This document shows positions 3,201 to 63,906 of a stretch of 64,000 nt of DNA, in pieces. How positions within the stretch are numbered: position 1 is the stretch's first letter; every line of letters starts with the position of its first letter. Position numbers and translations under genes: made by a program. A model generated the notes under the pieces. That model saw only the letters and a program-made list of their open reading frames with translations, made no database searches and had not been told where the DNA came from. Source of the DNA: Vermamoeba vermiformis (taxonomy: Eukaryota); the NCBI GenBank assembly GCA_045837725.1, contig JBEWZL010000069.1, positions 62,001-126,000 of the forward strand, in the 5' to 3' direction.

Positions 3201-3619
3201 TCATATTCTTATTCTCTCGTTTAGATCTCGCAGCCGAAGTCGCGCTAGACCTGACACCTCGATGAGCAGAGGTCGTGCCAAGTCACGTGAAGAAGTTGAA
3301 AAAGAACGCGCTGTTTCCAGGACACCCAAGCCCGGCGAGGGTTTCAAGAACTTGAAGGTACTTATTCATATAGCGTTAATGTAACTTGTACCCAGCTGCG
3401 TTTTTTGGTGGATCTGATCTGGATCCGGATCTTTTGGGAACACTTTTTAACGGTTTAAATCTATAGGCTAAGAATATGGCCGAGAAGTTGGGTCGTTATG
3501 CTCAACGAGAACGCAATCGTGATGGTCGCAAGGGTGAAGCTGACAGATGGGTGCCTGATCTTAAGCCCAAGCATTTGTTTGCTGGTCACCGTGGTATAGG
3601 CAAGAACGATAGACGTTAA
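268..3619 (+). CDS. NOG1: Nucleolar GTP-binding protein 1 (NOG1/GTPBP4), multi-exon
   Basis: Exons encode [27 protein letters not shown] (G1), [21 protein letters not shown] (G3), NKTD (G4) and C-terminal [21 protein letters not shown] introns; TAA at 3617-3619. Confidence 0.96.
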
Positions 3620-3878
3620 GAAAGATGAAAATACGAATGTCGTACATAATAATCATCTAATCAATATAATATTTTATTTTGCGAAAGTTTTGTTAGCGAG
3701 AACGTCAAATTTGTTTGTCGGATCTAAAAAAGTACTTCGATTGCAAATAAATGTTCTTCAATTAAGATACGCGCCCTTATATAGAAATTTAACATTATTA
3801 CTTTGCAATTTGCCTAATATAAGATATTTATTACAAGAGTAAAATTCTAGCTACAAATAAAATAAATGATCGTTTTAT

Positions 3879-6265
<2,387 letters not shown>

Positions 6266-6717
6266 CTCCGTTTGATCTGCGTACCACTTGTTGCGATACG
6301 TTAAATGAAAAAGATTTAGTGAAATAGTTCACGCGTTCGTAATAAAAATTAAGAAGGGAACAACTATTTTTACGTCCGTACTAACCTTTTTGCCGTTTCC
6401 GTACAAAAATTTAGTTTGCCTTATTTGGAAGTCGCGCCTCTCCCAAAGAGTGGTACCAAATACCTTCTTGACTTACCTCCAATCTCTCATCAGCGATTTC
6501 GTCGAAATTCCTCCAGTTGGGATCTGTAGCTTGATTCTACCCAAAAAAAGGTAGTGAGGACGGATCCAATAAGACTGGCTTAAAGTCCATGGTGATAGTG
6601 TGGGTGAACGGCTCAAAGATAGTATAGGGCTGCTAAGAGTCGAAGGAAAAGTTGCCGTACAAAGCAAAAAAGAGGTGGATCGGATCTACTATTTTTAATA
6701 GCAAGATTTTTTTACAA

Positions 6718-9700
6718 TTAAAATCCAAATTCACCGGCTTTAAATCGCTTATTACCGCCTCCATCGCCTTCATCTCCGCCTTCAGCCTTTCGTTTCTTAT
6801 TGTCCCAAATATTTTCAATCTTCTTCATTTGGTTATTAATCTTAGCGGCTTTTTGGCCCTTTTGTTGCTTCGTTTTGCGACCATCGGCCATTTTAACTCC
6901 GAATTGGTACGCAGCTCTATTAATAAAAAAACACATTAGTCTCAATAGACTTATTTGCACATCGGTTATAATATCATAGTAAAGTAACATAATCTGTGCG
7001 GCAAGATCCAAACTTAGATCGGATCCAGATCCAGATCTAGATCTGCTCCCGAAGCATTGATGATATTGAATGTATAGCACATTATACTTACTTAGGAGTA
7101 GCTTCACGCGTTTGTTCGTATTTGAGCCAATCCTCGTCAGTTTCAAAGTCCCATCGCTTCAATTTCTTCTTCGTGTCCATCTTAGTGATATCATCTTCGT
7201 CTTCTTCTTCGCCCTGTGCAAATCCCATGCCTTCAAACGTACTATATATAACATTGATCAGTACGACGAATAAACTTGATAAAATAATAACGACGTGAGT
7301 TGTTGTTGTTACGTACGCAGGATAACATTCCATGTAATCGTCCTCTTCAATCTTTTTCTTGTCTTTTGGTTTTTCTTCGGCTTTAGGTCTATAACCAAAA
7401 AATTAGTTAATAATATCGATCAAAACTGTTATTAGTCTCAACCAAAGCTCATACTAGTACGGCACATGTCACGTGTTGGGGGATTAAGGGGTTTAAATAA
7501 ACGCGTGGCAGTAGTTGAGAATAGATTAATGAGATTTCCCCCAAACCCCTTAATCCCCCAACACGTGACACGTGTCATAGTCAAATTTTCAATAGTAAAA
7601 TATTACTATTATTATATTATAATTTTTTTGGCTGGTTTGTGGTGCAAAATAAAATTTGATTTGTGGTGAGGGCACAAGTTTCGATGACTAAATAAGGCTA
7701 TCCAAGTCAACTTACTTATTAGCAGTAGCTGCGCTAGCTTTAGGCAGGGGAGGCAAAGCATCATATGCAGCGTCAGAACTGAAGTCGTAGTCTGACGCGT
7801 CACCAGGGCCCATGGAAGGCATCATCGGACCCAACATGCCACTCGGCTCTGGCTTTTTCTCGTCTTTGTCGTTCAATGTAATATCATAGTCATCATCCAC
7901 GTCGTCAAAAATACTATATTTGGTAATCGTTAGTACTCGAGATTTCCTTTTATGGAAAAATGTTACTTACCTCGCAGAAACTTTAGGCTTTTGCTGTACA
8001 GGTGCGGGTTTAGCTTCGGGTTTTTCTAAAAATGGAAAGTTTAGTTATTATGATTACCAAATATAGTAATATATTGCTTTTACGGGCTTGTAACGTACCA
8101 ATTTTTTTCACTTTTTTATGACCGTGCTTCAGTACTGTCATAATTTTGCTAACTTTTTCGATAATCTCGGGATTAATCTCGCCAGATACGAGTTCTTCCA
8201 TCGCAGGCAAATCATCTTTGCTGCGCGTCACTATTGTTGGCAGTTCTTGGTGCAGATCCGGATCTAACTCAAAAACTAACGTCGTTCGGCCCTATTATAC
8301 TAATTTAGCACTAAATCCATAAAATACAGCATTGTATAGATATTAGAAGGTAGAGCAAACGTTAAAATGCGTTAAGAAATAAAATTAATAAACATTTTGG
8401 ATCGGATCCAGATGATAGTCTAATGCAAAATATGCGACATATATATAAGATTATATTATATGTTTAGTACATACCTTAACGAATGTGTCTATAGTCTCGG
8501 GATACTTCTTCAAAAACACTTCTCGAAACAGATTTCGGCCGAGCACTGTCTTGATCTCAGTCGGCATTTCCATCGCGCGAATTGTTCCGCCAGTGGTGAT
8601 CAATTGTTTCACGGCAAAGGGCTTGGAATGTTCTTCTTGTTCTTGGCGCGCTTTTTCTTCCGCCTTTTGTCGCTCTTCCTCTTCAAGTTCACTTTTGACC
8701 TAAAAAAAAATACTTAATTAATAAAAGACCAAAGAATAATAACAACTAAAGCAATATCATGTTGGATATAATATTTAAATGCAATTTCGTTGGAAAATTG
8801 GGTTTGTTCAGAAATTAGATCCGGTACGAAAAAAATAATTTCGTTGGTCGGTTAGGTATACTAGTAGACTTATATTATAGTAGTATATACCTTCTCTAAT
8901 AGTGCGTAATCAAGACCTTTGACCAAGTGCGTGTGTTCCAAATCACCTCCCAAGTATTTCGATCGTTCATATTCTTGTCTGCGTAACTCCTCTGGATCCA
9001 CTTGACTATCGAATACAACGAATTAAAATCCTCACTAATAATTAACATATCATTATTTTTATTACTTTAAAAGGGATTGGTTATTGTAAGCCCAATTTGA
9101 AATCAATTTTTTTTCTTCGAATAAGTTTGATAAAATTTGTACTGGATTTGAATGCTATTAGAATTGCGTATATAACTTACTCTTCACTAGGAGGAGGCAT
9201 ATTATGTAGTCCTACTGTCATTGTTGTTTCTTCTTCGTCCGCTGCATCACCTCCGTTCGCTCGTCGTTCCGCTGCTCGATCTCGATAACCTTCAGGTAAC
9301 ATTGCTTGCTTTTTCTTCATTCTAAAAGCAAATCATATTTTAATAAAACATACCAAATAAGGAAATTGTAAATAGAACTCTATTTTGAAATGGAATTGTC
9401 GTGGATCTGAACCAATTTCAAACGAAGAAGCAATTTCCTTAACAATATGGGTATATATTATAGTACTATATGGTATGCACGTACTTTTCTGCTTTTTTCT
9501 GCTGTTTGATCTTCCTGAATTCGGCGATTTGATCTGGAGTGACTTTCGCTTTGGCGCGAGTTGGATCCAAGTGCGCAAATTTGGACTAATAGGACAATAT
9601 TAGATATTAACCATTATATATGTACGGAGAATAGTTATGTTGAAGAAAGCAAAGGTAATAGAACGAGCATAGATCGGATCGCATCTTTGAACCCGATCGA

Positions 9701-10804: not shown

Positions 10805-13755
10805 ATGCAACTGATTCTCAACAGTATAGGAATGGCTGCGATTGTGAATGAAGGTGCGACGTGTTACATCAGCGCATCTCTTCAGTTATTGTACAGTTTA
10901 GCACCGTTGCGCGAGCAAATCTTAATATGCAATCCTAAAACACCTCTTGGACTTGAATTGAAGAAGATATTTGTGCAAATGTCACAATTAAAAACCGTTC
11001 AAATTGGGCAACTCGCAACGTTAATGAACATCAGCAAGTCAGACTGTCGACATAAACAAGAAGATGCCCAGGAATTCATCATTAGTGTTGTTCATAAATT
11101 GGATAAAGACAAAGAGATGAAAAGAATTTTCTCGTCGGTGTTTGCAGGTTCGACTGTTACCACCATATCTGAGCGAAACATTGAACCATTTTTGGGTAAG
11201 TGCATTGATAGTTTAACGCAACTCTGACAGCAAAGTTGCAGATTTGTCCGTTCCAATTCCAAAACACCCAGCTCCAACTCTGATTGAATGCATTCAGTTA
11301 TTGTTCGACAACAATACAAAGTTTCATTCAATGCCGCAAGTACTGCTGTTGCATATAAAGCGATTTTCGGCCACTAAAAAGCTTACTTCTCGAGTTGAAT
11401 TTCGAGCAAAGTTGACAATACCAGCAACATTAAATGACAACAATTGCGCAGAGGCATTCAAGTTGCAGTCGTACATTGTCCATCAAGGTTCCAAAAACAA
11501 AGGTCACTATTGGACAAATAGTCTTTGTAATGGACAATGGATGGAATTGAATGACACAAAAATAACTAAAGTAAGGTATATCATTTTGTAGGCAACTTTC
11601 TGACATCAATAGATTAGTGGAGCTGCCAATCAAAAGTACTTTGAAGGCGAGTCTGTCGGATACCTAGTTGCATATGTTCAAGAGAGAGCTCAATCACCAA
11701 TGAAAGCTAAGAGAGCTGCTACCAAGAAAATTGATGATGATTATATGGACTGGGATACAGCATCAAGCTCTGATATGCCAGCAATTCACTCTATTGATAG
11801 TGACTCTTACGAAGCAAGTGAAAGTGTTGACTCTGACTACTGGTTTGAAGATTATGAGTGTGAGGAAGTATCGGATGAACAGCCGAAAGTAAACAAATTT
11901 GCTGATGGTAAGTAAAAAGGAATGCATTGATATTAATCTAATGGATTCCCAGTGAAAAAGCAAGCTGAAGTTGAGGGCTGGAAGATTGACGGCAAAAAGT
12001 TCAAATCCAAGAAAGATTACATCCCTCCTCCTGCTCCTGGCCCAAAGCGTGCAGTAATACTTCAGATAATCAACCAAATTCGGCAGCTACACAATCAATC
12101 CCAATTACAATCAGTTCTTAATGTCAGTCCCCTTGATTGTTACTTGTTGCTAATGGAGGAAGTTATTAACCACATTGTTTCCGAAACCAACAAGCAAAAT
12201 GACAAATTTAAGCTCACTTATAGTGATATTAGTGCGTACATCGGAGTAAGGATAGCCCAGCAATTATCTCCAAGTCATGCTATTGATGATGCTTGGGCAA
12301 CATTCAAGTATTCAAGAGGAATGTGGGGTAATCGTTGGATTGCCAAAACAATGCTCAAAGATGAATACAAGTTCATACACAGCAACAAGTCGTAAGTGAT
12401 TGTGCTGCATTTATCAATACTAATTCATTCAGTTTTGATCTTTATCATGTGTGGCGGCTCTTAAATGAGAAATATTCCTCAATTTGGACCCCTTATGGAA
12501 ACTTGGCACTTGATGATAAGGCAAATGCATGGAAAGGGCGTTCAATTTATCGAATTTACCGTCAACGGAAACCATTCCCATGGGCAATGTTAGAATACAT
12601 CACAATTGATGAAGCAGGCTGGATTGTAGCATTCATTCCACGTTATGGAGATTTTGCTAGTGTTACAAAGCAGTATCAACAGTGGAAAGAACGATATGAC
12701 AATTGGTTGCAAAACAAAGGAGATAAACCACCAGCATTCAAACGCTTGTTCCCAAGTGCCAGCAAGACAAACTTCAATTTACACATGGCTATCAATTTCT
12801 TGTTGTCAAGACTTCCTGACACTGATGGCAATTTGGCACCCTTTATAGTGTCTCCATGGACAGTTGATGACTGGAGTGCAATATTCTCTCGCGATATTTC
12901 CAACTATCAAATATATTGTGACAGAGAGTTCAGTTCTTATTGGCATCACTTTCGTCAATTCAAAGGTCTTGGATATACCTTGGGCATTGCTTCTGGACAC
13001 CACACTCATCTATTCCGCGACAACTTAGCCGTTGGTTTGAAAATTGGAGACTGGCATTCATTAACGGATAATTCAGAAGTCATTTTGACATATTCTGATC
13101 CTCAAGGTTCAGTTTGGGTTAGTAACAGGCATTCTGGAGAAGCTGTAGCATGCAGCAAGAAGCAAGGCAACAAGCAAGTCAAAAAGCAAAAAGTCGCTTC
13201 TGTCCCTACATTAATAGCACAGTACAGAAAGCATTTTTCAGCAGTTGACTCTCATAACTCCAAAGCCAAAAAATTCTTTTGGCCACATCGCATTCGCAAG
13301 GTAAAGACAGCATTTTATCTAAAATGGTGTAACATAACGTTTTAGGTTACTGATCGCTATGTGCTGGGAGACTGGGAGAGATCTGCTCAGGTTCAGGCGG
13401 AGCTATTGTACCAGGCTCTAACAGGCAAGGACATATCATCAAAGGAATTTCTGTCCACCTTGTCTCGCAGTTTGACAGAGAACTTTGTAACAAAGAGAGA
13501 GAGATCAACTTCTGTTGAAGCATTGGACTTAGCAAGGTCAAGTGCCAAACACAATCCTTATGCACACAGTTGCACGTATACTTTTGGATCACGGAAACGT
13601 TGCTTCCACTGCCAGAGTGAACAAGTTGATTCTTCTACAATGTAAGCTTACTTATTATTTCATTAATAACAGTCAACCTTAGGTATAAATGCCAACAGTG
13701 TAAAGTGCACCTCCACAAAAAGTGCTGGAAGAAATTTAAAGGAGTGAATTTATAA
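10805..13755 (+). CDS. USP (peptidase C19)-piggyBac transposase fusion with C-terminal Cys/His-rich domain; 5' end uncertain
   Basis: In-frame introns 11196-11241, 11571-11612, 11908-11952, 12392-12432, 13301-13345, 13642-13682. USP boxes NEGATCY, QEDAQEF, HQG..GHY, WMELND, GYLVAY. Transposase motifs LALDDK..WKGR..Y..RKP, IYCDREFSS, YRKHFSAVD. C-terminal CFHC..CQQCKVHLHKKC. Confidence 0.85.
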
Positions 13756-32373: not shown

Positions 32374-32877
32374 ATCCGCAGTCATTAATACGCTGATTAA
32401 ACATAAATTTGATGTCCAATTGCATCCGCGATTAAGTATAATGTAGTTACTATAATAATCTGCCAATAGAATATACTTTGGACTCAAAAAACCTCTCTTT
32501 TTTTGGTGCATCCGGCTGGATCTTACTACAACACAGATTGGTGAAGAGATCTTCTGATAATTCGGTAAGTACAACAATATAAGTTAGATTCCATTCGAAT
32601 GGTTATTGTAGAGCAAGATCAAGATAATGCCGGAGTTTTTTGAAAGGGATCGTAAGGGCAAATTGGCGTAACATCTATTTTTCAGCATGATTCATTCAAA
32701 ATGTGATACCAGCGCTCGTAAGAAATAATTTTGCTGAAAAACACTCTAATTCGCCTTAAAGCCGTTATTCCGCAAATAAATCTCCGTTTGGCCGTGTGTA
32801 CTTTTGGCATTTAAATACATAGATCGCGAGAAGTATACTCAATTCAAATCAAACATATTAACTCGAAACAATACACA

Positions 32878-35776
32878 ATGGCTGAAGTGTGTAAGGAAAA
32901 TAGCGTGTATATTTATTGTAGGAAGGTCACCAAATAATGACGACTTGTAACGTCACTAAATATTGACAATCACGTGACAAGTGTCACCTATTTTCATTAC
33001 ATTTCCCTCTCCCCAGAGTAAACCAAGGCTTAAACATAGCTCCACCAGGATCGAAGGGCTGCAGTGGTAAGTAATTTCTATCGTAATTCAACTTCACATG
33101 AAATTTCCATATCTCCGTCTCTCGTTCGTCTCTTGCTCCTCTACAATTAATAGGATTGTTTCCATCATCTATTTCTCTCTCCGCTCTTCGCTTCAAAGCG
33201 TTGGGCCAATTTTTGCTCGGATCTGATCTCTCCGCGCTCTTTTGAATTTTATTTAAAAAGGCACCGCTCCCGAAGGCCCGGGCCTGTTTCACCTGTGTTG
33301 GGGCTGTCTCTGACTTCAAGTCCTGCTGCTCGGTCGCACTACTAATCTCTCGATGACGTGTAATCTCAGATTCGGTCCACAAAATCTCCGTCACATCTGC
33401 TGACGTGTCAATACTATCGACTAAAGGCTCTCTAATAAACATATCTTCACTGATAATATTATTCTCTTCACTTCTCTCTTCTTCGCCGTTCATTTTCTCC
33501 GCGTTCTGTAGCGCCTCCGCAACTCGATCGGGTATAACTTCTTCTAACGTACTTGACTCGCGTTCTCTCTTCTCTAAAGGGGCTTCTACCTTACTAAACT
33601 CTTTTTCTAAAGCACTTGCAACGATAAGCATGAACTTCTCCGACGATAAAAAAGTGATGACGTCACTCGCGCGATCCAATCGCTCCAGAATCTTCTCGAA
33701 TCTCCTTCTCAACTTGCCTAGCTTCTTCTCCTCTTCGCATAGGCGGGAAACCTTCCTCTCTGTCTTCTCTAACTTCTTAACGAATTTTCCAAGATCCCAA
33801 AGTTCGCATCCACTCAGGATCTCCTTTCTATACTTCGTAATTCTCTTCTTATAATTTTCCTTTCTCGCATTAATGCTCTTCTGAATTATGGCAAGCTTCT
33901 CCTTAATTTTCTTTGCTTCCAACTTCAGATTCGACACTCGCAAACTCTTCGGCAAACTTCCCTGAGCCCAGCCAGAGAATACCTCTATCTCCTTCTTCAA
34001 TTCTCGTCGTGCCGCTCGCACTTCCTCTAGCGACGGCAAAACCAACTTCTCCATCCGCGTTCCAAACGCGCGATCCAATCAATCCAACTCGATCTCACCT
34101 CCCACCCAGTGAGAGGGCCTGCTTCGCTACCAAATGTAAGGAAAATAGCGTGTATATTTATTGTAGGAAGGTCACCAAATAATGACGACTTGTAACGTCA
34201 CTAAATATTGACAATCACGTGACAAGTGTCACCTATTTTCATTACAAGTGCAAAAACAACAGCAAAGAAAACTCAAGTACCGAAATCTGGGCAAAACAGG
34301 TTTGAAAGTGTCCGAGATCTGCTTAGGTAACCCCAGAAATCGAATAAAATCACTAAAACAATACTTAATATCTTATTAGGTGCCATGACTTTTGGTCCCA
34401 GTGCTTGGGGAATGCCGAACACTGATGAAGGTACGTGATCTCCTTTTTCAGTGAAGGAAAACTAATCGCTGAATTTTCAGAAACGAGTTTCAAGATTCTT
34501 GATCGCTTTGCTGAATATGGTGGTAACTTTATCGATACTGCTGATGCCTACGGACCATTCCACTCTGAAATTATTCGTAAGTTGAATTCGGATCACTTTA
34601 TTGCCCTCGAATTCATTTGAGCTGACGCTTAAATAGTTGGCAAGTGGCTGAAGACTAAGAATCGTGACGATTTCGTTATCGCAACCAAGTTCTACAGCCC
34701 TGTCGGAACCAATGCCAACGATTGGGGTGCATCCAGAAAACACATTCTGTCCGCCGTTGAAGGGTACGCTACATCTACAAAATATTATTTTTTAGAAAGC
34801 TGCAGATTTTAGAATCTGTCGTGAGATTTCCCTGAGTTGAAATTAATCTAATTTGTTTTTTTCTTATGCAGATCTTTGAAGCGATTGCAAACAGATTACA
34901 TCGATGTTTACCAAATCCATGGCTTTGACGATAGAACGCCAATTGAAGAGACCTTAACCACCTTGAACGACCTTGTACGCGTCGGAAAAGTGCGTTACAT
35001 CGGTGCCAGCAATTTCAACGGTTGGCAATTGCAAAAAGCGGTGCTAATTAGCAAACAACTCGGCTTGGAAGGTAAATGTCACAATTTTCCAGGCTTGTCA
35101 AAGGTATTTGTTTCTAATAACTCCGTAGCGTTCGTTAGCTTGCAACAACAATACTCGTTGCTCGAGCGAAACTCCGAGAATGAAGCCTTTGAAGTCTGCA
35201 AGAACGAAGGACTTGGTATCTTACCTTGGTCTCCTTTGAAAGGTAAATAGTCGATAAATATCTGATGAGAAATGATTAAGTTGAAAGAGGCTTTTGATGA
35301 CATTTTGACACTTTGACAGGAGGACTTTTGAGTGGCAAATACTCTCGCCAGAAAGGAGCATCGTCCGATCCTAATTCAAGAGTTGCGTGGGCCGAGAAGA
35401 TTGGCTGGAAGCAAACAGCATACTCAAGCGTGAACAATGAATTTACTTGGAATGTCATTGACAAGGTACCCTCGAACATGACCAACTTTGACCTCATTTT
35501 TCTCGTACTAATTGATATTTGCAGATCGAAGAAGTTGCAAAGGAAGTCAACAAGAGCGTGGCACAAGTGTCACTTCGCTGGTTGCTGCACAAACCAGCCG
35601 TGTCATCAGTGATCATTGGTGCCAAGACCGTGCAACAACTTGAAGAGAACATTGAAGCTGGTTTATTCACTTTGACTGACGCGCAAGTCACTGCTTTGGA
35701 TGAAGTCTCTACTCGTCCCTTGGAGTATCCTTACGATATGAAGGAGGTCGTCAAGAAGTTTCTTAGCAACAACTAA
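32878..35776 (+). CDS. Aldo-keto reductase, interrupted after codon 4 by an LTR element
   Basis: Removing the insert restores [35 protein letters not shown]. Also [46 protein letters not shown]. Confidence 0.92.
32890..34246 (-). mobile_element. Small non-autonomous LTR retrotransposon (1357 bp)
   Basis: Identical 112-bp TG...CA LTRs (32890-33001, 34135-34246); 4-bp TSD AGTG (32886-32889, 34247-34250); minus-strand PBS TGGTAGCGAAGC (34121-34132); PPT GGGGAGAGGGAAA (33002-33014). Confidence 0.95.
32984..34054 (-). CDS. Intronless coiled-coil-rich ORF (356 aa) of the LTR element
   Basis: E/K/R-rich N-terminal half; fills the internal region and stops inside the 3' LTR; no RT, RNase H, integrase or CCHC motif seen. 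Confidence 0.7.
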   Translation of the reverse strand: MEKLVLPSLEEVRAARRELKKEIEVFSGWAQGSLPKSLRVSNLKLEAKKIKEKLAIIQKSINARKENYKKRITKYRKEILSGCELWDLGKFVKKLEKTERKVSRLCEEEKKLGKLRRRFEKILERLDRASDVITFLSSEKFMLIVASALEKEFSKVEAPLEKRERESSTLEEVIPDRVAEALQNAEKMNGEEERSEENNIISEDMFIREPLVDSIDTSADVTEILWTESEITRHREISSATEQQDLKSETAPTQVKQARAFGSGAFLNKIQKSAERSDPSKNWPNALKRRAEREIDDGNNPINCRGARDERETEIWKFHVKLNYDRNYLPLQPFDPGGAMFKPWFTLGRGKCNENR

Positions 35777-35855: not shown

Positions 35856-37509
35856 TTAGAGAACGAGTAATACAACTACAATCATTGCCGACATGTAGTA
35901 CATGAGTGCGCTAGAACCACTTCTTAATTGCGAAGGGGTTGACTTGGCTTGAGGACTTTCAGAACCAGAAGGAACTTCGCGGTTGCTGTCATTCGGAGAA
36001 TTTTGATCGCTCGGAGAATTTCCGTTGGGCGAGGGCTGTTCATGAACGCCAAACAGCTCCCAGAACTTCTGTGAAGCACGAGGAAAAATCGTTTCCGGGC
36101 GTAATCTGTGATCACCGTCAAAGGCCAGCACGTCAAAATAGGAGTATATCGTGACATTGTTAGTCTCGTTCATGATAAAGTCGTGCGTGCGCTCAATGTA
36201 GTAATCGTTGTCGAAGCCTCCGCGGACATTAGCCCACACTCCGCATTCGTTCAAAATCAACGGCTTGCTGTGATTTCGTGCAAAATTTGCCCAGAATTCG
36301 AGACCCAAATATCCGCTGTGGACGGTGTTCCAGGCCTTTTGACGGAGCGATTGCAAGGTAGTGCTATTTGCGAGCAAAGTCCAAACAGTCGTCAGTGCCG
36401 GGCTCGACATTTGTGTTATTGACTGAGGCCCTCCATATTGACACATTATGCTCCACGCTGTCGTCAATGACAGAAAATCGCGTTGGTGACCAAGATCCAA
36501 ACGGTTGTGTACCTTCCCAATTGTATGTTCCATATCAATATCGTAGCTGTCAACGCCAACGTAATCGACGTATTCACCACCTGGCCAACAATCCGGAGCA
36601 TTAACAGCGTTATAACCGCCGTTAGGATTCCAAATCGTCTTGAAATTGTTGCCTAAAGTAGTTGGTGTCAAAAAAATATTTTGACATGTCAAGTTTTGAG
36701 CGTTGGATCTGACTTACCAGGCACAGAACGCATGGTAGTAACGATTTGGGCATAATAAGGTGCCCAGTAGTTGCACCCTGGGAGTGCAGTCCATTTGTAC
36801 CAATCACCGTTGAATTCCCAGCCGATGCGCAAGAGTGCAGTGGACAAATTGAACTTGACCAAATTTTCACCGAGGGTCTGAAAGTACTGATTGTATGTGC
36901 CTTGAGCTCCGGTAGCGATAGGTACTAACATATAATAATACGAATTAGTGTTTGAAGATTTATCGGTTTAAAAATCTGAAGCGGTCCCCTAGTAATAAAA
37001 GTTGACATCTTGACACGTGTCAAGTCAGTTGAACGACAAAATGCGAATCAAATCTTCTCGATGCGAAAATTAATTGCGTATAATGAACTTTAACGAGAAA
37101 GTAAATCGGATTCAAAATTTGAGACTAGATCCGGGTTTTGCTTACCACCTTCCACCAACGAAGGGATCATTGGGATCGAAATAATCATATGACGTTCTTC
37201 GCCTTCAGGTGCGCTATTAGCCCAAGTACTCCAGGGGCCAAGCCACCAGCCCTGACCGGCAATGTTGTCCCATGTTTCAGCTGCTTCGAACTCCATCGCG
37301 TAAACAACGGGATTGTTTAGCCGAAGACTGTAGTTTTGAACGTTATTAGGGCCCCATGGCGCAACGCCAGCGTAGACTCCAAGTTGAGGTTTTGAAGACG
37401 CGATCTGCCGAAAAAATTATTAGATCGAGGCACGAAACGAAAAGAAAAGATCACTTACAGATAATATTGCTAGAATAGTAAAGAAAATAACGAGTCCTTT
37501 TGTGTTCAT
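35856..37509 (-). CDS. Glycoside hydrolase family 26 (beta-mannanase-like), secreted, probably GPI-anchored
   Basis: Signal peptide; LRIGWEFNGDWY (acid/base Glu), WPGGEYVDYVGVDSYD, KPLILNECG (nucleophile); S/P-rich stalk and hydrophobic C-terminus. Confidence 0.85.
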
Positions 37510-46720: not shown

Positions 46721-47596
46721 AACCATTTTAAATTTATGTATACGATACGAATTATGCCAATGTATTTATTTCCTCACCTTGTATAATGCAATTAATAATT
46801 AATAAATTGTAAGTACTCTTCACAACTTGCTTGCGGTCCGCAGTGGGCTCGTAAATCATCCCACGGTGAAGTACTCCTCGATAATATTTATAGTACGTAA
46901 AATCCCGTTTATAGGGTCGCAAAGTTGTCATACAAAGCTCACACACTCGAGAAAGTTCGTGTAGTATCACGAAAAATTGAATTAGCTTCAAATTGATTTT
47001 AGCAATATAAATCAGCATCTCCTTCATTGAAAATATATTTGCATAATTCTCTATGGACCGTAAAATGCAAAGTGGTGCGAATTGAATTTTGAATCGAAGA
47101 TCGAAAAACGCGCGTGCCCAAAAATTCGCCTCTATTTTTAAGTAAAGAAAGAAATATAGATGTACCGATGTATGAAGGTCTCGGGCAAGGAAAAGGATTG
47201 GTCAGTTTTACGGAAGATAAAAGAAAATTTACGTTTTCTGATCAAAGAAAAAAGCGGAGAATAATGGAAGAATTAATGCTAAACAAGCTAGTTCGTGAAC
47301 TTACGTTATCGATGCAAATGAAAGTTCATTAGAGAGGTTCGAACATCAATTACTGGCCCGAAAGTGCTGTTCAAAGGCAGAGTTCGGCCGATTCGTGGTC
47401 GAAGCATCCAGAAGAGGCAAAGGCCTGGCACGCAAGGCCACGCGAGGAAAGGTCCATCAATAATTCCCTGAATCTCTAAAAATAGAGAACAGCAGAATTT
47501 ACATCAGTTTCCTAAGATTACAATGCGGTTGACCAAAGTTTGACGATCTGGCCATAAAAAGAAAATTTTTCGCGTTTTTCAATTTCATAACAATAA

Positions 47597-48547
<951 letters not shown>

Positions 48548-48712
48548 ATCTGTTCCAACGGATTTACTTGTACATTTAGCGCTTCATGAAGCGCGAATAA
48601 ATGTCTGATTACTCATAATAATGTTTGTACGTTTTTGTCGTTAAATTAGAACTTACCCAACGGGTCAATTTCGTTTACTGATCCTTCGCATCTCTTTCGT
48701 GCAACTGTCGCC

Positions 48713-56402: not shown

Positions 56403-56469
56403 TACAATAATATTAACGTATACTAATATCAATATGTATCATTTGTTTATAAATTAAAACTATCGTTCG

Positions 56470-59400
56470 TTACAACTTCATGTTCGGATCCGCTTCTTCG
56501 CTTCTCCAAGACAAATAATCTCTGACATAAGTTGTGGTATCGTCACGATCCGATAATACGAGATATCGTGCGTTTGCCATTTTTGGAATGTGTTCAGTGG
56601 GTTGAAGCCACTCGATTTTGCGTGATGGCAAGTGCCACGATGAAACGATTGGTGCATTTTGTGTGTGAATGAATAGCCGTTCGTTTGAGCACGGAACATT
56701 CTGCAAATCATTCATGAATGAGTTATTCAATAAATATTATAAGTACGAAATGTTATGTTTTACCTCGTAATTTATGTAGTTGGGGCGAAGCACATATTTG
56801 ACAATTTCTGTTTCAGATCCGGTTCGCAAGTCAACAAATCCAACTGCTGTCGTGAGACCACAATATCGACGTCCTCGCAAGTAATCAGGTGCATACCCCA
56901 ATATAAGCATTGTATTCTCATCGACTATCTTGGTGTATCTGATAGTCAACGTATCAGAAGAATTGGATGATTTTTGCGGCACCCAAATATCTTTCATTGT
57001 TCGCAAATCTGTGACCGTATAATGATTGCGTGCAGAAGTACTAGAAACAGTGACAATAGTATTGTTGAACGGATTAAATGTTGCAATCTCATTTTCTTTG
57101 GTATGCAATTCTGCCGTGACTATTTCTTGCTCAATGTTGTAGACGCAGCTCACTAAAAAATAATTAGTATTCTATGTGATAGCATTATATTGAAAAAATT
57201 GTAAATAATTGTTATGGGAAGTTTTTTTTTTGACACGTGTCAACGGTAATTTTTCACGTGTCATTCGTTGCAACAAATATCTAACCACGAAGCTCTCAGA
57301 AAACATTTATATTTCTAAGGCAGTTTGACACGTGTCAAAAACTGGTTTGTGAAGTACGTACCGGTCGGGCAAAAAATCGAGGTAGCGTCTATCGAAGTAA
57401 TTCCTGCCAAATCTTTTACTCTGCCACGAATGGCAAGATTTTTTAGCACTGGAGATTCAGTTTCGCTCAAAATTGTAAATATATGCATCAAGTTCTCGTT
57501 CCGTCTTGCGAGCAGCACTTTTGGCACTCGCGCTGCTTCATTATTAGTGTCTTTCAATAATGTGATAAATGACCGATGTGTTGTTGTGTTCGAAATGTCT
57601 GAAAGTTGTTGACTGTGACAGTTCCAATAAGAGACGTGTGTCGTATTGTAATTGGAGTCAAGGTCTTTCAAAATCAACCAATCATCGTTCAGCAAGAATG
57701 GCTTGCCTTTCAATTCTGCAACGTTGGAGTACTTGTTTTGTTGCCAGCTCGAGTTCAACCTGTAAAAAAACAATGTTAATACTGCTTCAAAAAGTGACAC
57801 GTGTCGTCGTCGCAAATCTGCGTGCGAAAGAAAATCAAAAGGACTGTCAACTTTCAAAAGAACATCGCATAACCCAAACAAGTATTGATTCGCTAAAATT
57901 GTCCTGCGATTAGGCCAGGACGCTATTAAGTGTCAAAGTGTCACTTTTTAACGATTTTTTATGACACGTGTCATTGTAAAAAAAGTTTGATCTTAAGTGT
58001 CAAAATCGGTCGTAAAGATAAGCAATGAAGTTATGACACGTGTCATTATCAAATGATTGATCTTTTTGTCACTTACTTCAATAGTCGCTGAACTCTCGTT
58101 CGATAAGGCAGTGTCACATCTTCAACGTGATTGAAGTACTTGACATGATAATGACGCCAAAGTTGCTCGTCTTGATTGAACAACGTTGTTTTGAATTCTT
58201 CGTCCAATGTCTTCGAGCAGCTGTATAACCTCGTCAAGTCATGTGGAGCAAGATGCATTGCAATTTCTTTGTATAGATCTTTCGGTAAATCGAACAGACT
58301 GTGACTTCCATTTATGGTAATATTTGCAGATTCCGACAATTCTTCTTGCTTTTTTGGTTTATCGATACAACGAAACAGCTCCCTAAAATCGTCGCGGTCG
58401 ATCATTTTCTGCAAATGTTGACGAATGGCTTGTGCGTTGTGAGGCTGACAGTGCTGCAAAAGATAAAAGAATAGCATTGTATATGTCATATTCTGCACCG
58501 AAAAACTCCAATGTTCAATGAATTTTTGCCACGCTGTGTTGGTGGTCTCGTCTTGTTCGACGATCATTTTAAGAGCGGCAAGAAATTCTACGGGATAAGT
58601 GTTCGACGGTCCTAAGTACTTTGAAAGATACGTAATCGCAGGAATTTCTCCCGCCTGGTTCCTAGAAAAAACCCCGGCATTAAATTTAAAAAAAATCAGA
58701 AAAAGTTTAGTACTAATACTGTAAACAAAAGATCGCTTTCCGGGCGATAGTATAAAAATTAACGTGTCTTTTTAAGCGAAATTTCATCGTTTAAATTTGT
58801 ACGGGTTGAACTTACGATTGCGAGGCAGCAGCAATGAGTTTTTGAACGTCCGTTGCATGTTTCTTCATCGCTTTCCAAATACGCTCAAAATCGACCACTC
58901 GAACACGTGCATGTCTTGTAGCGTAGTGTAGTATATTATTGCCGCTAGAATCTTGTTCTAAAAAAAAAGTCGTTAGATCAGATCGGATCCACCAAATTTT
59001 TTTTTGTGGTGGTTATTCTTACCTAAGAACCAATCAGGATATCTTTGCAAGTATTCTTCGAATTCCGTAGATTCCTTTAAATGGTGAAATACTTGCGAGC
59101 CCAGAACTATTTGTTTCTTCGTGTAATTGTTGTCTTTGAGCCAGTTCAGCATTCGCATCTTGTCTTTGAATTTCATATTCGATTGCATAATAGCTAGGCC
59201 TAATTCTTTTTCTGGAAAAAAACGAGTTAAACACAATCCATTGTCGTAAGATAGTAGACTAAAAAAAGGTACTAAGAATTTCAATAATTGCGTTAATAAA
59301 TAGAAAATGTCAGAGACCTCGGTTATTTGACACGTGTCAAAGATCTTAATTTTTTCACGTCACATAAAAAATATTAGTGCAACGTCGGGAAATAATTTAA

Positions 59401-60151
59401 CGTCAAAAAGTTGAAGGTGTCAAATATCGCTTGTTCTAACAAGGATAAGCGATTATATAATAAGGTTTTCTTAAATTAATAAAATTGATAAATTTACCGT
59501 CCGTGCAAACAGCGCCAAGGGTGAAAGCAGCCTTTAGGTACTTCGGTTTGTGCGCCAGGGTTAGCAAGGGAAAATCGTCTCTATCGATCAAAGGTGTCGC
59601 GTATTTAAGTCGCTTTATAATATTTCCTGAAGATAAACTTGGTGCGGAGGCAAGATCTGGCAAAAATTTTAGTTTGGAAGATCCGCAGCGGATTTGCCCA
59701 TACCGAATAGTTTCAACCATGTAAACTCTTCATAAGGTAAGTCGGTATTAATGCTTGATTTAATAAGCAATTTAACGGCCATTTCATGCAGACCAAGCCG
59801 CACAGCCTGCAACGAATCCGTAAGTCAAAAATTAAAGAACTTACTTTACGACTTACTACGCTAATTAAATCTTCTTCGTCTTCATTTTTTCTTATTATAG
59901 CACGAATTAATAAGCGTTCTTGAGCAGACAACAAAGCAGTGAAGGTTTCGACATCTGACGTTGTAATTGCGTCTTTTAAAGCCTAATTTTTATTCATTAA
60001 TTTCTAAACATATATATTTATCGTACAATAGTTATTGTATAACTTAAGCGTTTTGTATCGGTGTTATGCAATTAATTTATTTTCAGATTATCGAATTTCG
60101 GAACGGATTCGAGTCTTTAAGAACGCTACGTACCACTCTATTGCCTTCCAT
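56470..60151 (-). CDS. Tandem paralogue A: helical/ankyrin-like N-region, F-box, beta-strand-rich C-region
   Basis: LFDLPKDLYKEIAMHLAPHDLTRLYSCSK F-box; exon-by-exon homology to paralogue B. Confidence 0.72.
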
Positions 60152-60339
60152 TACTTGCTTAATCTGATTTATACGTGCAATCAAAAATAAGTGTCATTCA
60201 AAAACTGTTCTACTTGTGCCTTACTCACAGTGGGACGGGACACGAAGTGGTGCGTTCTTTGACAATTCTCAAAAGTGATTCGTAAAGACCAAATCTACGA
60301 ATCGTCATTTATTTGTTTATAAATTAAAACTATCGTTCG

Positions 60340-63300
60340 TTACAACTTCAAGTTCAGATCCGCTTCTTCGCTTCCCCAAGACAAATAATCTCTGACATAA
60401 GTTGTGGTATCGTCACGATCTGATAATACGAGATATCGTGCATTTGCCATTTTTGGAATGTGTTCAGTGGGTTGAAGCCACTCGATTTTGCGTGACGGCA
60501 AGTGCCACGATGAAACGATTGGTGCGTTTTGTGTGTGAATGAATAGCCGTTCGTTTGAGCACGGAACATTCTGCAAATCATTCATGAATGAGTTATTCAA
60601 TAATATATAATATGTTTTAAGTCTTACCGCGTAGGTGTTAGTGAACACGTGTTTGACTCTGTTTGTTTCGGATCCAGTTCGCAAGTCAACAAAACTACAA
60701 GCAGATGCATAAGTATATCGACGTGCCAACATATGATTGCGACACTGTCCCATAATAAACAGCGTATGCTCATCGACTATCTTAGTGAAAGTGATCGTCA
60801 TTGGGTGTAATGTCTTTCGTGGCACTTTAACGGTGTTGTTTGTGCGAATATCTGTAATCGCATAGTAATCGTTGCCATATGAAGAAACGGTGACAAAAGT
60901 TTTGTTGAACGGATTGTATATAGTTCTACTGTCGAAGTCGAATTTGGGCAGTTGTGCGGTCACTGTTTCGTATTCTATGTTGAATACACATCCAGCTTAA
61001 AATAGCGTTAGAGTAAGACATGATATTGTCCCAGTAAAATAGTGAAAATTTGAAAGAATTAGTGAAGGAGGATTGTTGACACGTGTCAAAGTGTCAATTT
61101 TTTCACACAGCTACGTACCGTACGGAAAAAATATCTGATTTTCGGTGATCGAAACAATGTCCTCAAAGACTCTTAAAGATCTGTAATTATCATCAGGAAC
61201 ATTTTTCAACGGAGCCGATTCTTTCTCGCTTAGAATCTTCAAGAAGAAATTTTGAAGACTTTTGTATTCGCTAACGAGCACTTTCGGAGCACTAGCTGAT
61301 TCAGTCGTGTCTTTCAATATTGTGCAAAATTTGTGGACTGAAGATGTAACTGAAATATTTGCAAAGCTTTGAGTATGACAGTTCCAATAAGCGACTGGTG
61401 TCGTATTGTATGACGTATAATACTCATTCGCAAGGTGGTTGCTCATAATAATCCAATTGTCGTTGATCAGTTGCGGCTTGCCTTTCATTTCTGCAACGGC
61501 GGAATATTTATTCTTCCGCCAGCTGGAGTTTAGCCTGAAAAATAAAACGTTAATAATAGGCAAAAACAAGAATTCAGAAGTTGACAGGTGTGCTGTCAAT
61601 TTTAAGTGTCAAACTCAACAACGAATTTATGACACGTGTCATTGTAAAAAAATCGATCTTAAGTGTCAAAATGTCCTGCTCAACAATGAAGTTATGACAC
61701 GTGTCATTATCAAAAAATTGATCGTTTTGTCGCTTACTTCAATAGTCGCTGCACTCTTGTTCGATAAGGCAGTGTCACATCTTCAACGTGTTTGAAGTAC
61801 TTGACGTGATAATGACGCCAAAATTGCTCGTCTTGATTGAATAAGATTGTTTTAAATTCTTCGTGCAATGTCTTTGAGCAGCTGTATAACCTCGTCAAGT
61901 CATGCGGAGTGAGTTGAATAATAATTTCTTCGAATAATTCTTTCGGTAAATCGAACAGGATTGTATGATGACTATCACTTCCATTTATGGTTATATTCGC
62001 TGATTCCGACAATTCTTCTTCCTTCTTTGGTTTGTCAATGACGTGAAACAATTGATGCAAGTCATCGCATTCAAATAATCTCTGCAAAACTCGTCTGAGG
62101 TGCTGAGTATTGTGCGGCTGACCGTGCTGCAAAAGATAACAATACAACATGCCATACTTCAAATTCTGCGTGTCATAACTCATGTGATGTTCAGTATACG
62201 TCATCCACGCTTGATTGATTTCGTCTTGTTCGACGATAATTTTGAGCGCGTTAAGGAATTCTACGGGAGTGGACGAATTACCCAAGTACTTTGAAAGATA
62301 GGCAATGGCTGGTACTACTCCCGATGAGTTCCTATAAACAAGTCATTAATTATCGAACAATGAAACAACGACGAAAGTAGAGTGATTCGTGTAGGCTTTA
62401 AAGCGCCACCGGACTTGATTTTGGCGATATCGCCAAAAAAAGGAGATAAACAGATAATTGTAAAATTCGATCGGACTTAACCGACAATTTTGTTATAGTA
62501 ATCACGTGCCTGGTTTCGATTGAAATTTACGGCTCATTATTGAGGTAAAACGTAATAATTTTTCACGGTAAACTTTACCTTTGCAACGCAGCAGTGATAA
62601 GTTTTTGTTTGTCAGGGCAAATTTTCTTCAATATGGACCAAGTTCGATTAAATGAAGAGACGCGTACCTTGTCATGTCTCGTAATTTCGTGCAGGATATT
62701 GTTGTGCGTTAACGGATCTTTTTCTACGAATAAAATTTTTAGATCTGATCTCGGATCTCGAGAGCTCAACGGTAAATTTTATTCGTACCTAAGATCCAAT
62801 CACCATCAGGATAACTTTTCAAGTATTCTTCGAATTCTGGAGATTGTATAATGAAGCGCCGTACTTCAGAAGTAGGTACGATTTGGTGCGTCACGTAATT
62901 GTTGTCTTTGAGCCATTGCAAAAGTTTGATTTTGTCTTTGAATTGCAAGCAAGATGTCATAATGGCCGAGCCTAAGGCACTCGCTATATAAAAAAAAAAA
63001 TACGGTTAGTTAAACTGAGGATAGTTTCAGTTTTTGACACGTGTCATTTGAAAAAACCAACAAAGCGATCTATATTAACTAATTTAGGCGTCGAAGCAGC
63101 GATTTTTTTTCCGTGAAATGATTTTCAAACACGCCGTTTGGCACGTGTCATAATGCTGATCGTAATTTAAACTTTTGGCGGTTTCGGTGACAAGCAGTAT
63201 TAAGGTATTTCATCAATTGCTTTAATAACCTCGGTAATTTAGTCCTATTAATAAAATTGATAAATTTACCGTCCGTGCAAACAGCGCCAAGGGCGAAAGC

Positions 63301-63906
63301 AGCTTTGAGGTACTTCGGTTTGTGTGCCAGGGTTGTCAACGGGAAATTGTCTTTAGAGATCAGCGGCGCAGCATATTTTAATCGTTCAATAATTTGGGTT
63401 GAGGAAGCATGTGGTGCGGAGACAAGATCTGGCAGGAATTTTAGTTTGGAAGATCCGCAGCGGATTTGCCCGTACCGAACAGTTTTAGCCATGTTATCTT
63501 CTCAAATGGTATTTTTGCATCCTCATAAGTCATAACAAGCAATTTAATGGCCAGCTCTTGTCGACCAAGATGAACGGCCTGAATTTTCAAATCCGCTTTT
63601 AGCACGAGTAGGGAAAGCTTGTAAGACTTACGTAGCTTATCAAGTCTTCATTTTGATTTTTTAATAGGTCTCGCAATGAGAGGCTATCCATTGAAGAAAT
63701 TAGACGGGCAAAGACTTCGACATCTGCCTTCGAAATTGCGTCCTTCAATGCCTGTAAAATAATTGGTAAAAAATGTTGTTCATTAATTATAATTATTTAG
63801 CACTAAAAGAGCTCGCTCATCTTCCGAGCTAGATTTTAATTTTACATTCCGATGCATTTCCCAACGGATCGTGCCCACCTACCCCGAATTTATCGTCCTT
63901 CTCCAT
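60340..63906 (-). CDS. Tandem paralogue B of the same F-box family
   Basis: LFDLPKELFEEIIIQLTPHDLTRLYSCSK; same exon order as paralogue A; near-identical last exon. Confidence 0.72.

Follow-up and report, generated by a model that had tools for sequence, protein, structure and literature searches.

Probable recent insertion of a small non-autonomous LTR retrotransposon into the first coding exon of a Vermamoeba vermiformis aldo-keto reductase gene

Introduction

When an LTR element lands inside a coding exon, is it removed from the transcript as a new intron, or is the gene simply interrupted? This question is raised by an aldo-keto reductase gene of the amoeba Vermamoeba vermiformis, in which an LTR element lies antisense in coding exon 1, after codon 4. 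The gene is contained in a 64-kb stretch of contig JBEWZL010000069.1 (positions 62,001 to 126,000 of the forward strand), here called the window, and all coordinates below count from its first letter. The original prediction proposed that the element is positioned to be spliced out in frame, with a donor from the LTR edge and an acceptor from the target duplication, as an introner-like route to intron gain. On the evidence assembled below, we consider it probable that a small non-autonomous LTR retrotransposon has recently inserted, in antisense orientation, into coding exon 1 of one of two reductase copies, which are most likely alleles. An ordinary recent insertion allele is the most likely description of the interrupted copy, and clean in-frame removal of the element is less likely.

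Results

Structure of the element

The element occupies 32890-34246 of the window (1357 bp) and is bounded by direct repeats at 32890-33001 and 34135-34246, which are identical at 112 of 112 positions, each starting with TG and ending with CA. The LTR pair is far beyond chance expectation, and two matches to a 42-nt LTR probe occurred in none of 100 shuffles. The letters AGTG flank the element on both sides (32886-32889 and 34247-34250) as a 4-bp target duplication; direct TG..CA repeats and a target duplication of 4-6 bp are the structural features of an LTR retrotransposon. The boundary is compatible to the same degree with a 111-bp LTR and a duplication of 5 bp, since an A stands both ahead of the left AGTG and at the end of the LTR. 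The termini of the element form an inverted repeat at 13 of 14 positions.

The sense strand of the element is the minus strand, as shown by a purine run at one LTR, a TGG stretch just inside the other, and the location of the only long ORF on that strand. Read in this sense, the 3′ LTR at 32890-33001 is abutted by a polypurine tract (33002-33016), whose plus strand is a run of pyrimidines that ends in CAG. The 5′ LTR lies at 34135-34246, and an 18-mer starting with TGG, 2 nt from it at 34115-34132 on the minus strand, is a candidate primer-binding site whose plus strand resembles a tRNA 3′ end (...ACCA). ARAGORN returned no tRNAs from the window, hence no local tRNA for comparison with this stretch, and Rfam returned no families for the whole window; a sigma-70 promoter and terminator scan was disregarded as inapplicable to a eukaryote. 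Two LTRs without a single difference, a duplicated target, a purine tract, a candidate TGG primer site, and an ORF that is intact all speak for a recently inserted LTR retrotransposon. The LTR pair, the duplication, and the minus-strand ORF establish the antisense LTR element after codon 4 as originally described.

The single ORF of the element (P0001, 357 codons including the stop) runs on the minus strand from 34054 to 32984, stops within the 3′ LTR, and leaves no space for another long ORF. A Pfam search of this ORF (E up to 1 above cut-off) assigned no family, and the two rows returned were both below cut-off. Four relatives were identified among 5.8 billion proteins, and a search of longer proteins gave none. 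A profile search of 1.84 billion representatives retrieved only the family itself, five proteins (relatives P0002-P0006 only); a cluster look-up gave single-member clusters whose names are at most "hypothetical protein." The AlphaFold2 model of the ORF has a mean pLDDT of 57.8, with confidence confined to the N-terminal half, which is helical. With a limit of E up to 0.001, a Foldseek search of this model against the PDB gave no match; weaker rows were generic helical bundles. A Gag identity was considered for this ORF and dropped, with no Pfam match and no Foldseek match at that E-value. Protein-pattern scans gave 595 matches in metagenome contigs and 535 in viral contigs, none of which was confirmed, and an exact 21-nt LTR-end pattern had no match in the metagenome contigs. 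Separately, a neighboring ORF reached a best score of 0.85 in the protein atlas, which serves as a lead only.

With respect to the enzymes of an autonomous element (protease, reverse transcriptase/RNase H, and integrase), no Pfam family was found, and no relatives of greater length. The 1357-bp element, with one orphan ORF, thus appears to encode neither reverse transcriptase nor integrase and would be mobilized by the enzymes of an autonomous partner with the same LTR end, primer site, and leader.

The interrupted reductase gene

The reductase start codon at 32878 is the first ATG past an in-frame stop at 32812. The start codon and codons 2-4 (32878-32889, plus strand) form the first part of exon 1 and join in frame to 34251, from where the rest of the gene extends to 35776 in pieces at 34251-34326, 34380-34430, 34481-34576, 34637-34763, 34872-35071, 35129-35242, 35320-35465, and 35525-35776. 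The joined reading comprises 357 amino acids and a stop with no internal stops, so that apart from the element the gene is intact. PF00248 was found above the curated cut-off on four of the seven exon pieces scanned, with profile positions 21-289 covered. The gene has seven introns of its own, all 50-108 nt long, and these were the set against which the proposed splice sites were compared.

Splice geometry and competing sites

On the plus strand, the edge of the element reads T|GTAAGG, placing the proposed donor GT at 32891-32892, and the right target duplication supplies the proposed acceptor AG at 34247-34248. On paper, the splice signals would come from the element end and the target duplication, with the GT starting at LTR position 2 and the AG being duplication positions 1-2. 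Deletion of 32891-34248 (1358 nt, GTAAGG ... AAG) preserves the reading frame and adds one Leu, giving a product that begins MAEVLQKQQQRK... The 5′ LTR carries a second GTAAGG donor on the plus strand at 34136, and a solo LTR would leave a GT..AG interval of 113 nt (34136-34248). Recomputation reproduced these figures, along with every other sequence statement of the original prediction, including its own caveats of an AAG acceptor and a competing CAG ending at 33016.

Under the nascent intron reading, the element would be removed as a 1358-nt intron, the product would be a functional reductase longer by one Leu, and LTR-LTR recombination would later shrink the intron to 113 nt. In favor of it, besides the preserved frame, the GTAAGG donor equals the donors of the reductase's own introns in quality, and 13 of the 17 letters before the proposed acceptor are pyrimidines, within the range of 8-14 of 17 in these seven introns. 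The recombined length of 113 nt would also be near that of the longest reductase intron (108 nt). Against it, the proposed acceptor is AAG, which occurs in none of the seven introns, and the hypothetical 1358-nt intron would be 12 times longer than the longest of them. The element also presents stronger competing sites on the plus strand. A GT..CAG interval of 126 nt (32891-33016) uses the same donor with an acceptor preceded by 15 of 17 pyrimidines, and splicing there would place TAG TAA directly behind codon 4. Within the element, we counted six donors with at least a 5/6 match to GTAAGT, including a perfect GTAAGT (6/6) at 33067-33072, and seven YAG acceptors preceded by 12 or more pyrimidines in 17 letters; an AATAAA lies on the gene's strand at 33434-33439. 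Finally, an element with TGT..ACA termini and a 4-bp duplication would appear "in frame" in about 1/16 of exonic insertions by chance, because the only requirement is a duplication starting with AG. Taken with the DNA and RNA reads described below, we regard removal of the element as a nascent intron as unlikely.

DNA reads contain the gene without the element

The DNA run that best matched the window (X1, with 0.63 of the stretch's sampled words present) was searched for alternative forms of the locus. X1 is not an independent sample since it may be the sample behind the window's assembly. Runs X4-X20 (metagenomes and runs from other organisms, with small shares) were left out. One contig in X1 joins 32886 to 34249 through a single C and represents the gene without the element: it has only one copy of the AGTG site, and codon 4 reads CTG. 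This contig has 30 letters on its shorter side, one below the rule for bridging records. Its depth of 290.3 equals the depth of the variant letters at 32819, 32820, 32828, and 32856, each of which accounts for 290.3 of a total of 513.7. The copies with and without the element are also told apart at 32887 and 34295. Because the empty-site form accounts for about half of the depth, the insertion is probably hemizygous and young, and the interrupted allele needs no rescue to persist. The presence of an uninterrupted copy thus also speaks against a nascent intron.

The uninterrupted form could instead be a recent duplicate gene; the insertion would then be fixed where it lies, and the interrupted copy would be a dying duplicate. 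The five differences within about 100 bp (four other-letter sites and the C at the joint) would be many for alleles in many organisms, and the flank depth alternates between about 250 and about 600, which equally fits two alleles. However, about 30 letters away on either side the variant path appears to return to the window sequence, which is how a heterozygous site would behave, and a depth ratio of roughly 1:1 is what two alleles would most simply give. We consider a duplicate improbable, slightly more so than the nascent intron. An assembly artefact, in which a repeat was misplaced in the gene, is very improbable. Although only 0.63 of the sampled words were present in X1 and no listed piece spans the whole stretch, a perfect 4-bp duplication with exact LTR boundaries is a signature of integration rather than misjoining; about 223 of the 513.7 depth at the four variant sites does not come from the empty-site contig; and the sole loose end at the left junction comes from the flank of another copy.

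Further copies of the element were evident in X1 as loose ends in which LTR edges are joined to foreign flanks, indicating further near-identical copies in this run. Summed depth was about 560-7080 over the element and about 210-670 in the flanks, a quantity that is not equivalent to copy number. The left flank of one other copy (loose end at 34134) ends in AGTC, an AG start, with an ATG 13 nt before the LTR, as the nascent intron reading would have it, but two of the three right-hand flanks shown for other copies lack an AG start. AGT was seen in four of six flank ends, with the left and right ends of the present locus counted separately, too few to test for bias. The original prediction had called for a collection of other copies and solo-LTR remnants; the 64-kb window contains none of either, which also counts against the nascent intron.

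We find it decidedly improbable, more so than either the nascent intron or the duplicate, that the LTR family is a true introner, although the AGTC flank with its nearby ATG and the flank ends with AGT are hints toward it, in numbers far too small for a test. Such a family would have termini (T|GTAAGG...pyrimidine run-ACA) that act as splice signals and an integrase that favors AG-starting 4-bp targets behind start codons; its antisense exonic insertions would be removed in frame with a one-codon scar, and its solo LTRs would become 113-nt introns.

RNA reads at the locus

Three RNA runs carrying the same species label were read to 46-48% each, about 12.9 million records per run; their strain may be too unlike the window. 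No read fell on the reductase exons in the three runs, the one exception being a read in X21 of which about 31 letters lie there (34263-34294). This outcome would fit a gene that is silent or very lowly expressed or a strain that is too unlike. No splice joint was found in these runs, in which the reductase exons had no coverage to show one. In all three runs, about nine reads per run fell only on 34097-34144 and then ran into an LTR and interior unlike those of the element, which shows that a relative with this 48-nt block is expressed.

Proposed fate of the interrupted copy

In the insertion allele that we favor, the interrupted reductase copy would be null or strongly reduced. An intact second copy, together with absent or very low expression of the gene in the sampled RNA, may explain why it is tolerated. 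Any transcripts of the interrupted copy would most likely end early or be spliced at several cryptic sites, and the first such splice would remove 32891-33016 and lead to an immediate stop. Counting against this view, in-frame splicing could still occur where the reductase is expressed.

Discussion

The introner-like route therefore stands in its geometry, with GT..AG boundaries and a preserved frame, and falls short as a functional reading, given the empty-site form, an AAG acceptor seen in none of seven introns, and the stronger competing sites and AATAAA inside the element. LTR-derived introners, acceptors from target duplications, and the splicing of exonic LTR elements have all been published already.

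Short LTR elements with no polymerase genes are known from plants as the TRIM, SMART, and TR-GAG families, which are small, have very short LTRs, lie in or near genes, and are presumed to depend on an autonomous partner. The present element shares with them the short LTRs, the small size, the lack of polymerase genes, the presumed reliance on an autonomous partner, and a position within a gene. The label TR-GAG cannot be claimed because its ORF has no detectable likeness to any Gag.

An older parallel comes from Drosophila. In 1990, Fridell, Pret and Searles reportedly described a 412 element antisense in the first exon of vermilion that is removed at cryptic sites near its ends. This splicing is said to have been shown at the bench and to be inefficient, with several donors and a mutant phenotype that remains. 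The likeness to our locus is that of an antisense LTR retrotransposon in a first exon; splicing in the reductase is hypothetical. The work of Fridell, Pret and Searles (1990) on retrotransposon 412 in a vermilion exon is cited in PMC2586383 and PMC4691828, the citing literature mentioning "an antisense TE insertion at vermilion."

Among introners, a recent survey (Gozashti et al. 2025, PMC12130899) attributes about 12% of confidently classified families to LTR retrotransposons and reports one plant species in which full Copia elements and solo LTRs both make working introns. The introner-like route was thus already in print and is not new with this locus. As in those LTR introners, the reductase has an LTR element in a coding exon, bounded by GT..AG (PMC12130899). 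The families described there comprise many annotated and expressed introns, whereas the present case is one copy with an AAG acceptor and an uninterrupted copy alongside. In Micromonas introners, the donor comes from the element edge and the AG from the target-site duplication (PMC11282704), exactly the donor and acceptor geometry proposed here. The Micromonas elements, however, are short DNA transposons that carry inverted repeats, make 3-nt duplications, and are present in thousands of spliced copies (PMC11282704); the reductase element has LTRs and a 4-bp duplication, and its splicing is hypothetical.

A further precedent is an exonic ONSEN insertion in Arabidopsis that was fully intronized, as supported by long-read cDNA (PMC12112155). 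In that study, this case is treated as an exception, most exonic insertions having given truncated transcripts. ONSEN is an autonomous 5-kb Copia element and ours a 1357-bp non-autonomous one, yet both are new whole-LTR exonic insertions (PMC12112155). The Micromonas introners (PMC11282704), the LTR introners including solo LTRs (PMC12130899), and ONSEN (PMC12112155) thus provide precedents for a nascent intron.

If in-frame splicing were true, the reductase would have caught an LTR element in the course of turning into an intron, with the target duplication as the source of the acceptor and a scar of one codon, and would give a mechanistic picture for LTR-derived introners, which have so far been reported mainly at survey level. 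The TGT..ACA termini nevertheless make any such element look "spliceable" in about 1/16 of exonic insertions. As the evidence stands, the interrupted copy is an ordinary allele with a young insertion from a small non-autonomous LTR family that had no name before. The insertion can serve to mark ongoing retrotransposition and differences between haplotypes in Vermamoeba vermiformis.

An LTR element behind codon 4 of an aldo-keto reductase gene

On the plus strand an in-frame stop lies at 32812, and the next ATG is that at 32878. When 32878-32889 was joined to 34251 and seven GT..AG introns were removed, a reading of 357 codons with no internal stops was obtained, and four of seven exon pieces matched PF00248 (aldo-keto reductase) over profile positions 21-289. 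The joined reading and the profile matches bear out the original prediction that the retroelement (32890-34246) interrupts an otherwise intact gene behind its codon 4, in antisense orientation. The reductase introns are 53, 50, 60, 108, 57, 77 and 59 nt long; all seven start with GTA, and they end in CAG (four) or TAG (three), never in AAG. A 285-codon open frame on the minus strand (35859-36713) is convergent with the 3′ end of the reductase and matched no Pfam family; some members of the protein-atlas clusters nearest to it carry glycoside hydrolase family 26, which at a score of 0.85 is no more than a lead.

One pair of direct repeats, 112 bp each and perfectly identical in the window, was found at 32890-33001 and 34135-34246. 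A 42-nt probe from the repeats had no match elsewhere in the 64 kb, and two matches to it arose in 0 of 100 shuffles. Each repeat starts with TG and ends with CA, its two ends form an inverted repeat (13/14), and AGTG stands at both sides of the pair (32886-32889 and 34247-34250). As A is the neighbouring base in both places, the duplication may instead span 5 bp and the repeat 111 bp. The interior (33002-34134) is polar, with the minus strand as its sense strand. In that reading a purine run (33002-33016) directly abuts one repeat, a TGG-starting 18-mer (34115-34132) lies 2 nt from the other, and the only ORF begins at 34054 and has 357 codons, its stop at 32984 falling within the 3′ repeat. 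The element is an LTR retrotransposon with full anatomy and without polymerase genes, and is non-autonomous.

Other repeats and open frames occur in the window. A 326-codon open frame at 12365-13342 (plus strand) matched part of the piggyBac-type transposase profile PF13843 (E 3e-09) and is probably what remains of a DNA transposon. A 228-nt unit is repeated in tandem at 47627-48610 in at least four copies, with 67-84% identity to the first, and long open frames are found there on both strands (47585-48583 minus, 47597-48547 plus). Several repeat pairs at 56441-63511, spaced 3661-3870 nt apart with 72-98% identity, indicate tandem duplication of a segment of ~3.7-3.9 kb with minus-strand open frames.

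The element protein and its relatives

P0001, the protein from the ORF of the element, matched no Pfam family above the cut-off. Four relatives with 39-84% identity were found among 5.8 billion proteins, and a search for longer relatives found none. Against 1.84 billion representatives, a profile of the five sequences added a single fragment to the four relatives already known and returned nothing else. Invariant blocks occur in the N-terminal half of the alignment, and a motif immediately before the polypurine tract is conserved, indicating that the ORF is a real, conserved gene of the element lineage. The structure model showed a confident helical bundle at residues ~9-167, disorder beyond it and no significant fold match; a Gag label would be by position only.

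An uninterrupted form of the gene

In X1, the best-matching DNA run (share of window words 0.63), a contig passes from 32886 to 34249 through a single intervening C. This contig represents the gene in its element-free form, in which the duplicated site occurs once and codon 4 reads CTG; on its shorter side the joint has 30 letters, against a bridging criterion of 31. Its depth of 290.3 is identical to the variant depth at 32819, 32820, 32828 and 32856, each with 290.3 of 513.7 total, so that about half of the X1 gene copies are uninterrupted. The simplest explanation is that two rather different haplotypes are present and one of them bears a hemizygous insertion, and X1 may be the very sample behind the window; a recent duplicate of the gene would look the same here as an allele. 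The two copies are highly divergent: within ~100 bp that lead up to and include the insertion site (32819-32887), the uninterrupted form has five differences from the window, and a separate contig has a further one at 34295.

Summed depth in X1, which is not a copy number, was ~560-7080 over the element versus ~210-670 over the flanks. This excess, together with loose ends that carry LTR edges on other flanks, shows that other copies exist. Among the loose ends shown (32890, 33001, 34134, 34247 and 34250), the left flanks of other copies have AAGT and AGTC as their last bases, and the right flanks CCTT, TATG and AGTG as their first. An ATG stands 13 nt before the LTR in one left flank, and a TATA-like run ~20 nt before it in another. 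These flanks, far too few, hint at a family taste for AGT and gene 5′ ends. The identical LTRs, the intact ORF and the empty-site form indicate a young insertion.

Splice geometry and competing signals

The element had been proposed to be removed as a new in-frame intron, and the arithmetic holds: excision of 32891-34248 (1358 nt) preserves the frame and adds one Leu, and the second LTR alone, from the GT at 34136 to the same AG (34247-34248), gives an interval of 113 nt. This geometry follows from the TGT..ACA ends of the element, the sole requirement being a 4-bp duplication starting with AG, for which the chance would be ~1 in 16. With the LTR ends forming an inverted repeat, the opposite orientation would give the same geometry, so for these two sites nothing is special about the antisense position. 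In-frame splicing as the predominant outcome is favored by a donor as good as the real donors of the reductase and by 13/17 pyrimidines at the acceptor, within the range of its real introns (8-14). Only two features are unusual, the AAG acceptor, used by 0/7 real introns, and a length 12 times that of the longest; we consider this outcome improbable.

Other signals are present on the strand of the gene. The antisense strand of the element is pyrimidine-rich (C+T 63%) because its coding strand is purine-rich. Six donors match GTAAGT at 5/6 or more positions; the one at 33067 is perfect, and the LTR donors (32891 and 34136) are among them. Fifteen NAG sites were listed, requiring at least 12/17 pyrimidines upstream or being the proposed site itself, and seven are YAG (33016, 33511, 33721, 33742, 33928, 34030 and 34109). 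The first of these is the competing CAG anticipated in the original prediction, and corresponds to the polypurine tract read antisense. With the LTR donor it delimits a 126-nt interval, near the reductase intron sizes, whose use would place TAG TAA directly behind codon 4. An AATAAA lies at 33434.

RNA matching the stretch

Three RNA runs with the same species label as X1 were read to 46-48% each (~12.9 million records per run). Nine reads were placed per run, every one only partly on the stretch. Eight to nine per run lie on 34097-34144 and then run into a different LTR, and in one run (X23) five of these also run into a different interior; in another (X21), one read has ~31 letters on 34263-34294. 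The 48-nt block 34097-34144, the only stretch matched by the former reads, comprises the LTR end, putative primer site and leader. A related element with this block is expressed and is perhaps the autonomous partner; the common block would fit a non-autonomous element using the enzymes of a partner. Exons 34348-35000 had zero depth in every bin across the portions read, and no RNA joint was seen in these runs, which lack depth over those exons. The reductase is so either silent or very low in the sampled RNA, or the RNA strain is more than 5% unlike the window.

Comparison with known systems

An exonic insertion of 412 in Drosophila vermilion is reportedly antisense. PMC12130899 assigns ~12% of classified introner families to LTR retrotransposons and describes working introns formed in one plant by full Copia elements and by solo LTRs. 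A model in which the element supplies the donor and the target duplication the AG appears in PMC11282704. In PMC12112155 a fully intronized ONSEN insertion in an exon is described as exceptional, most insertions there being truncating. On these precedents for LTR introners, duplication-derived acceptors and exonic LTR insertions, the proposed route is already established; if true here, only the family and the organism would be new. For intron gain at this locus the in-frame GT..AG geometry stands and the biology is unsupported. The locus likely carries an ordinary and young insertion allele, probably hemizygous, from a small non-autonomous LTR family; this allele would knock out or cripple one copy of the gene.
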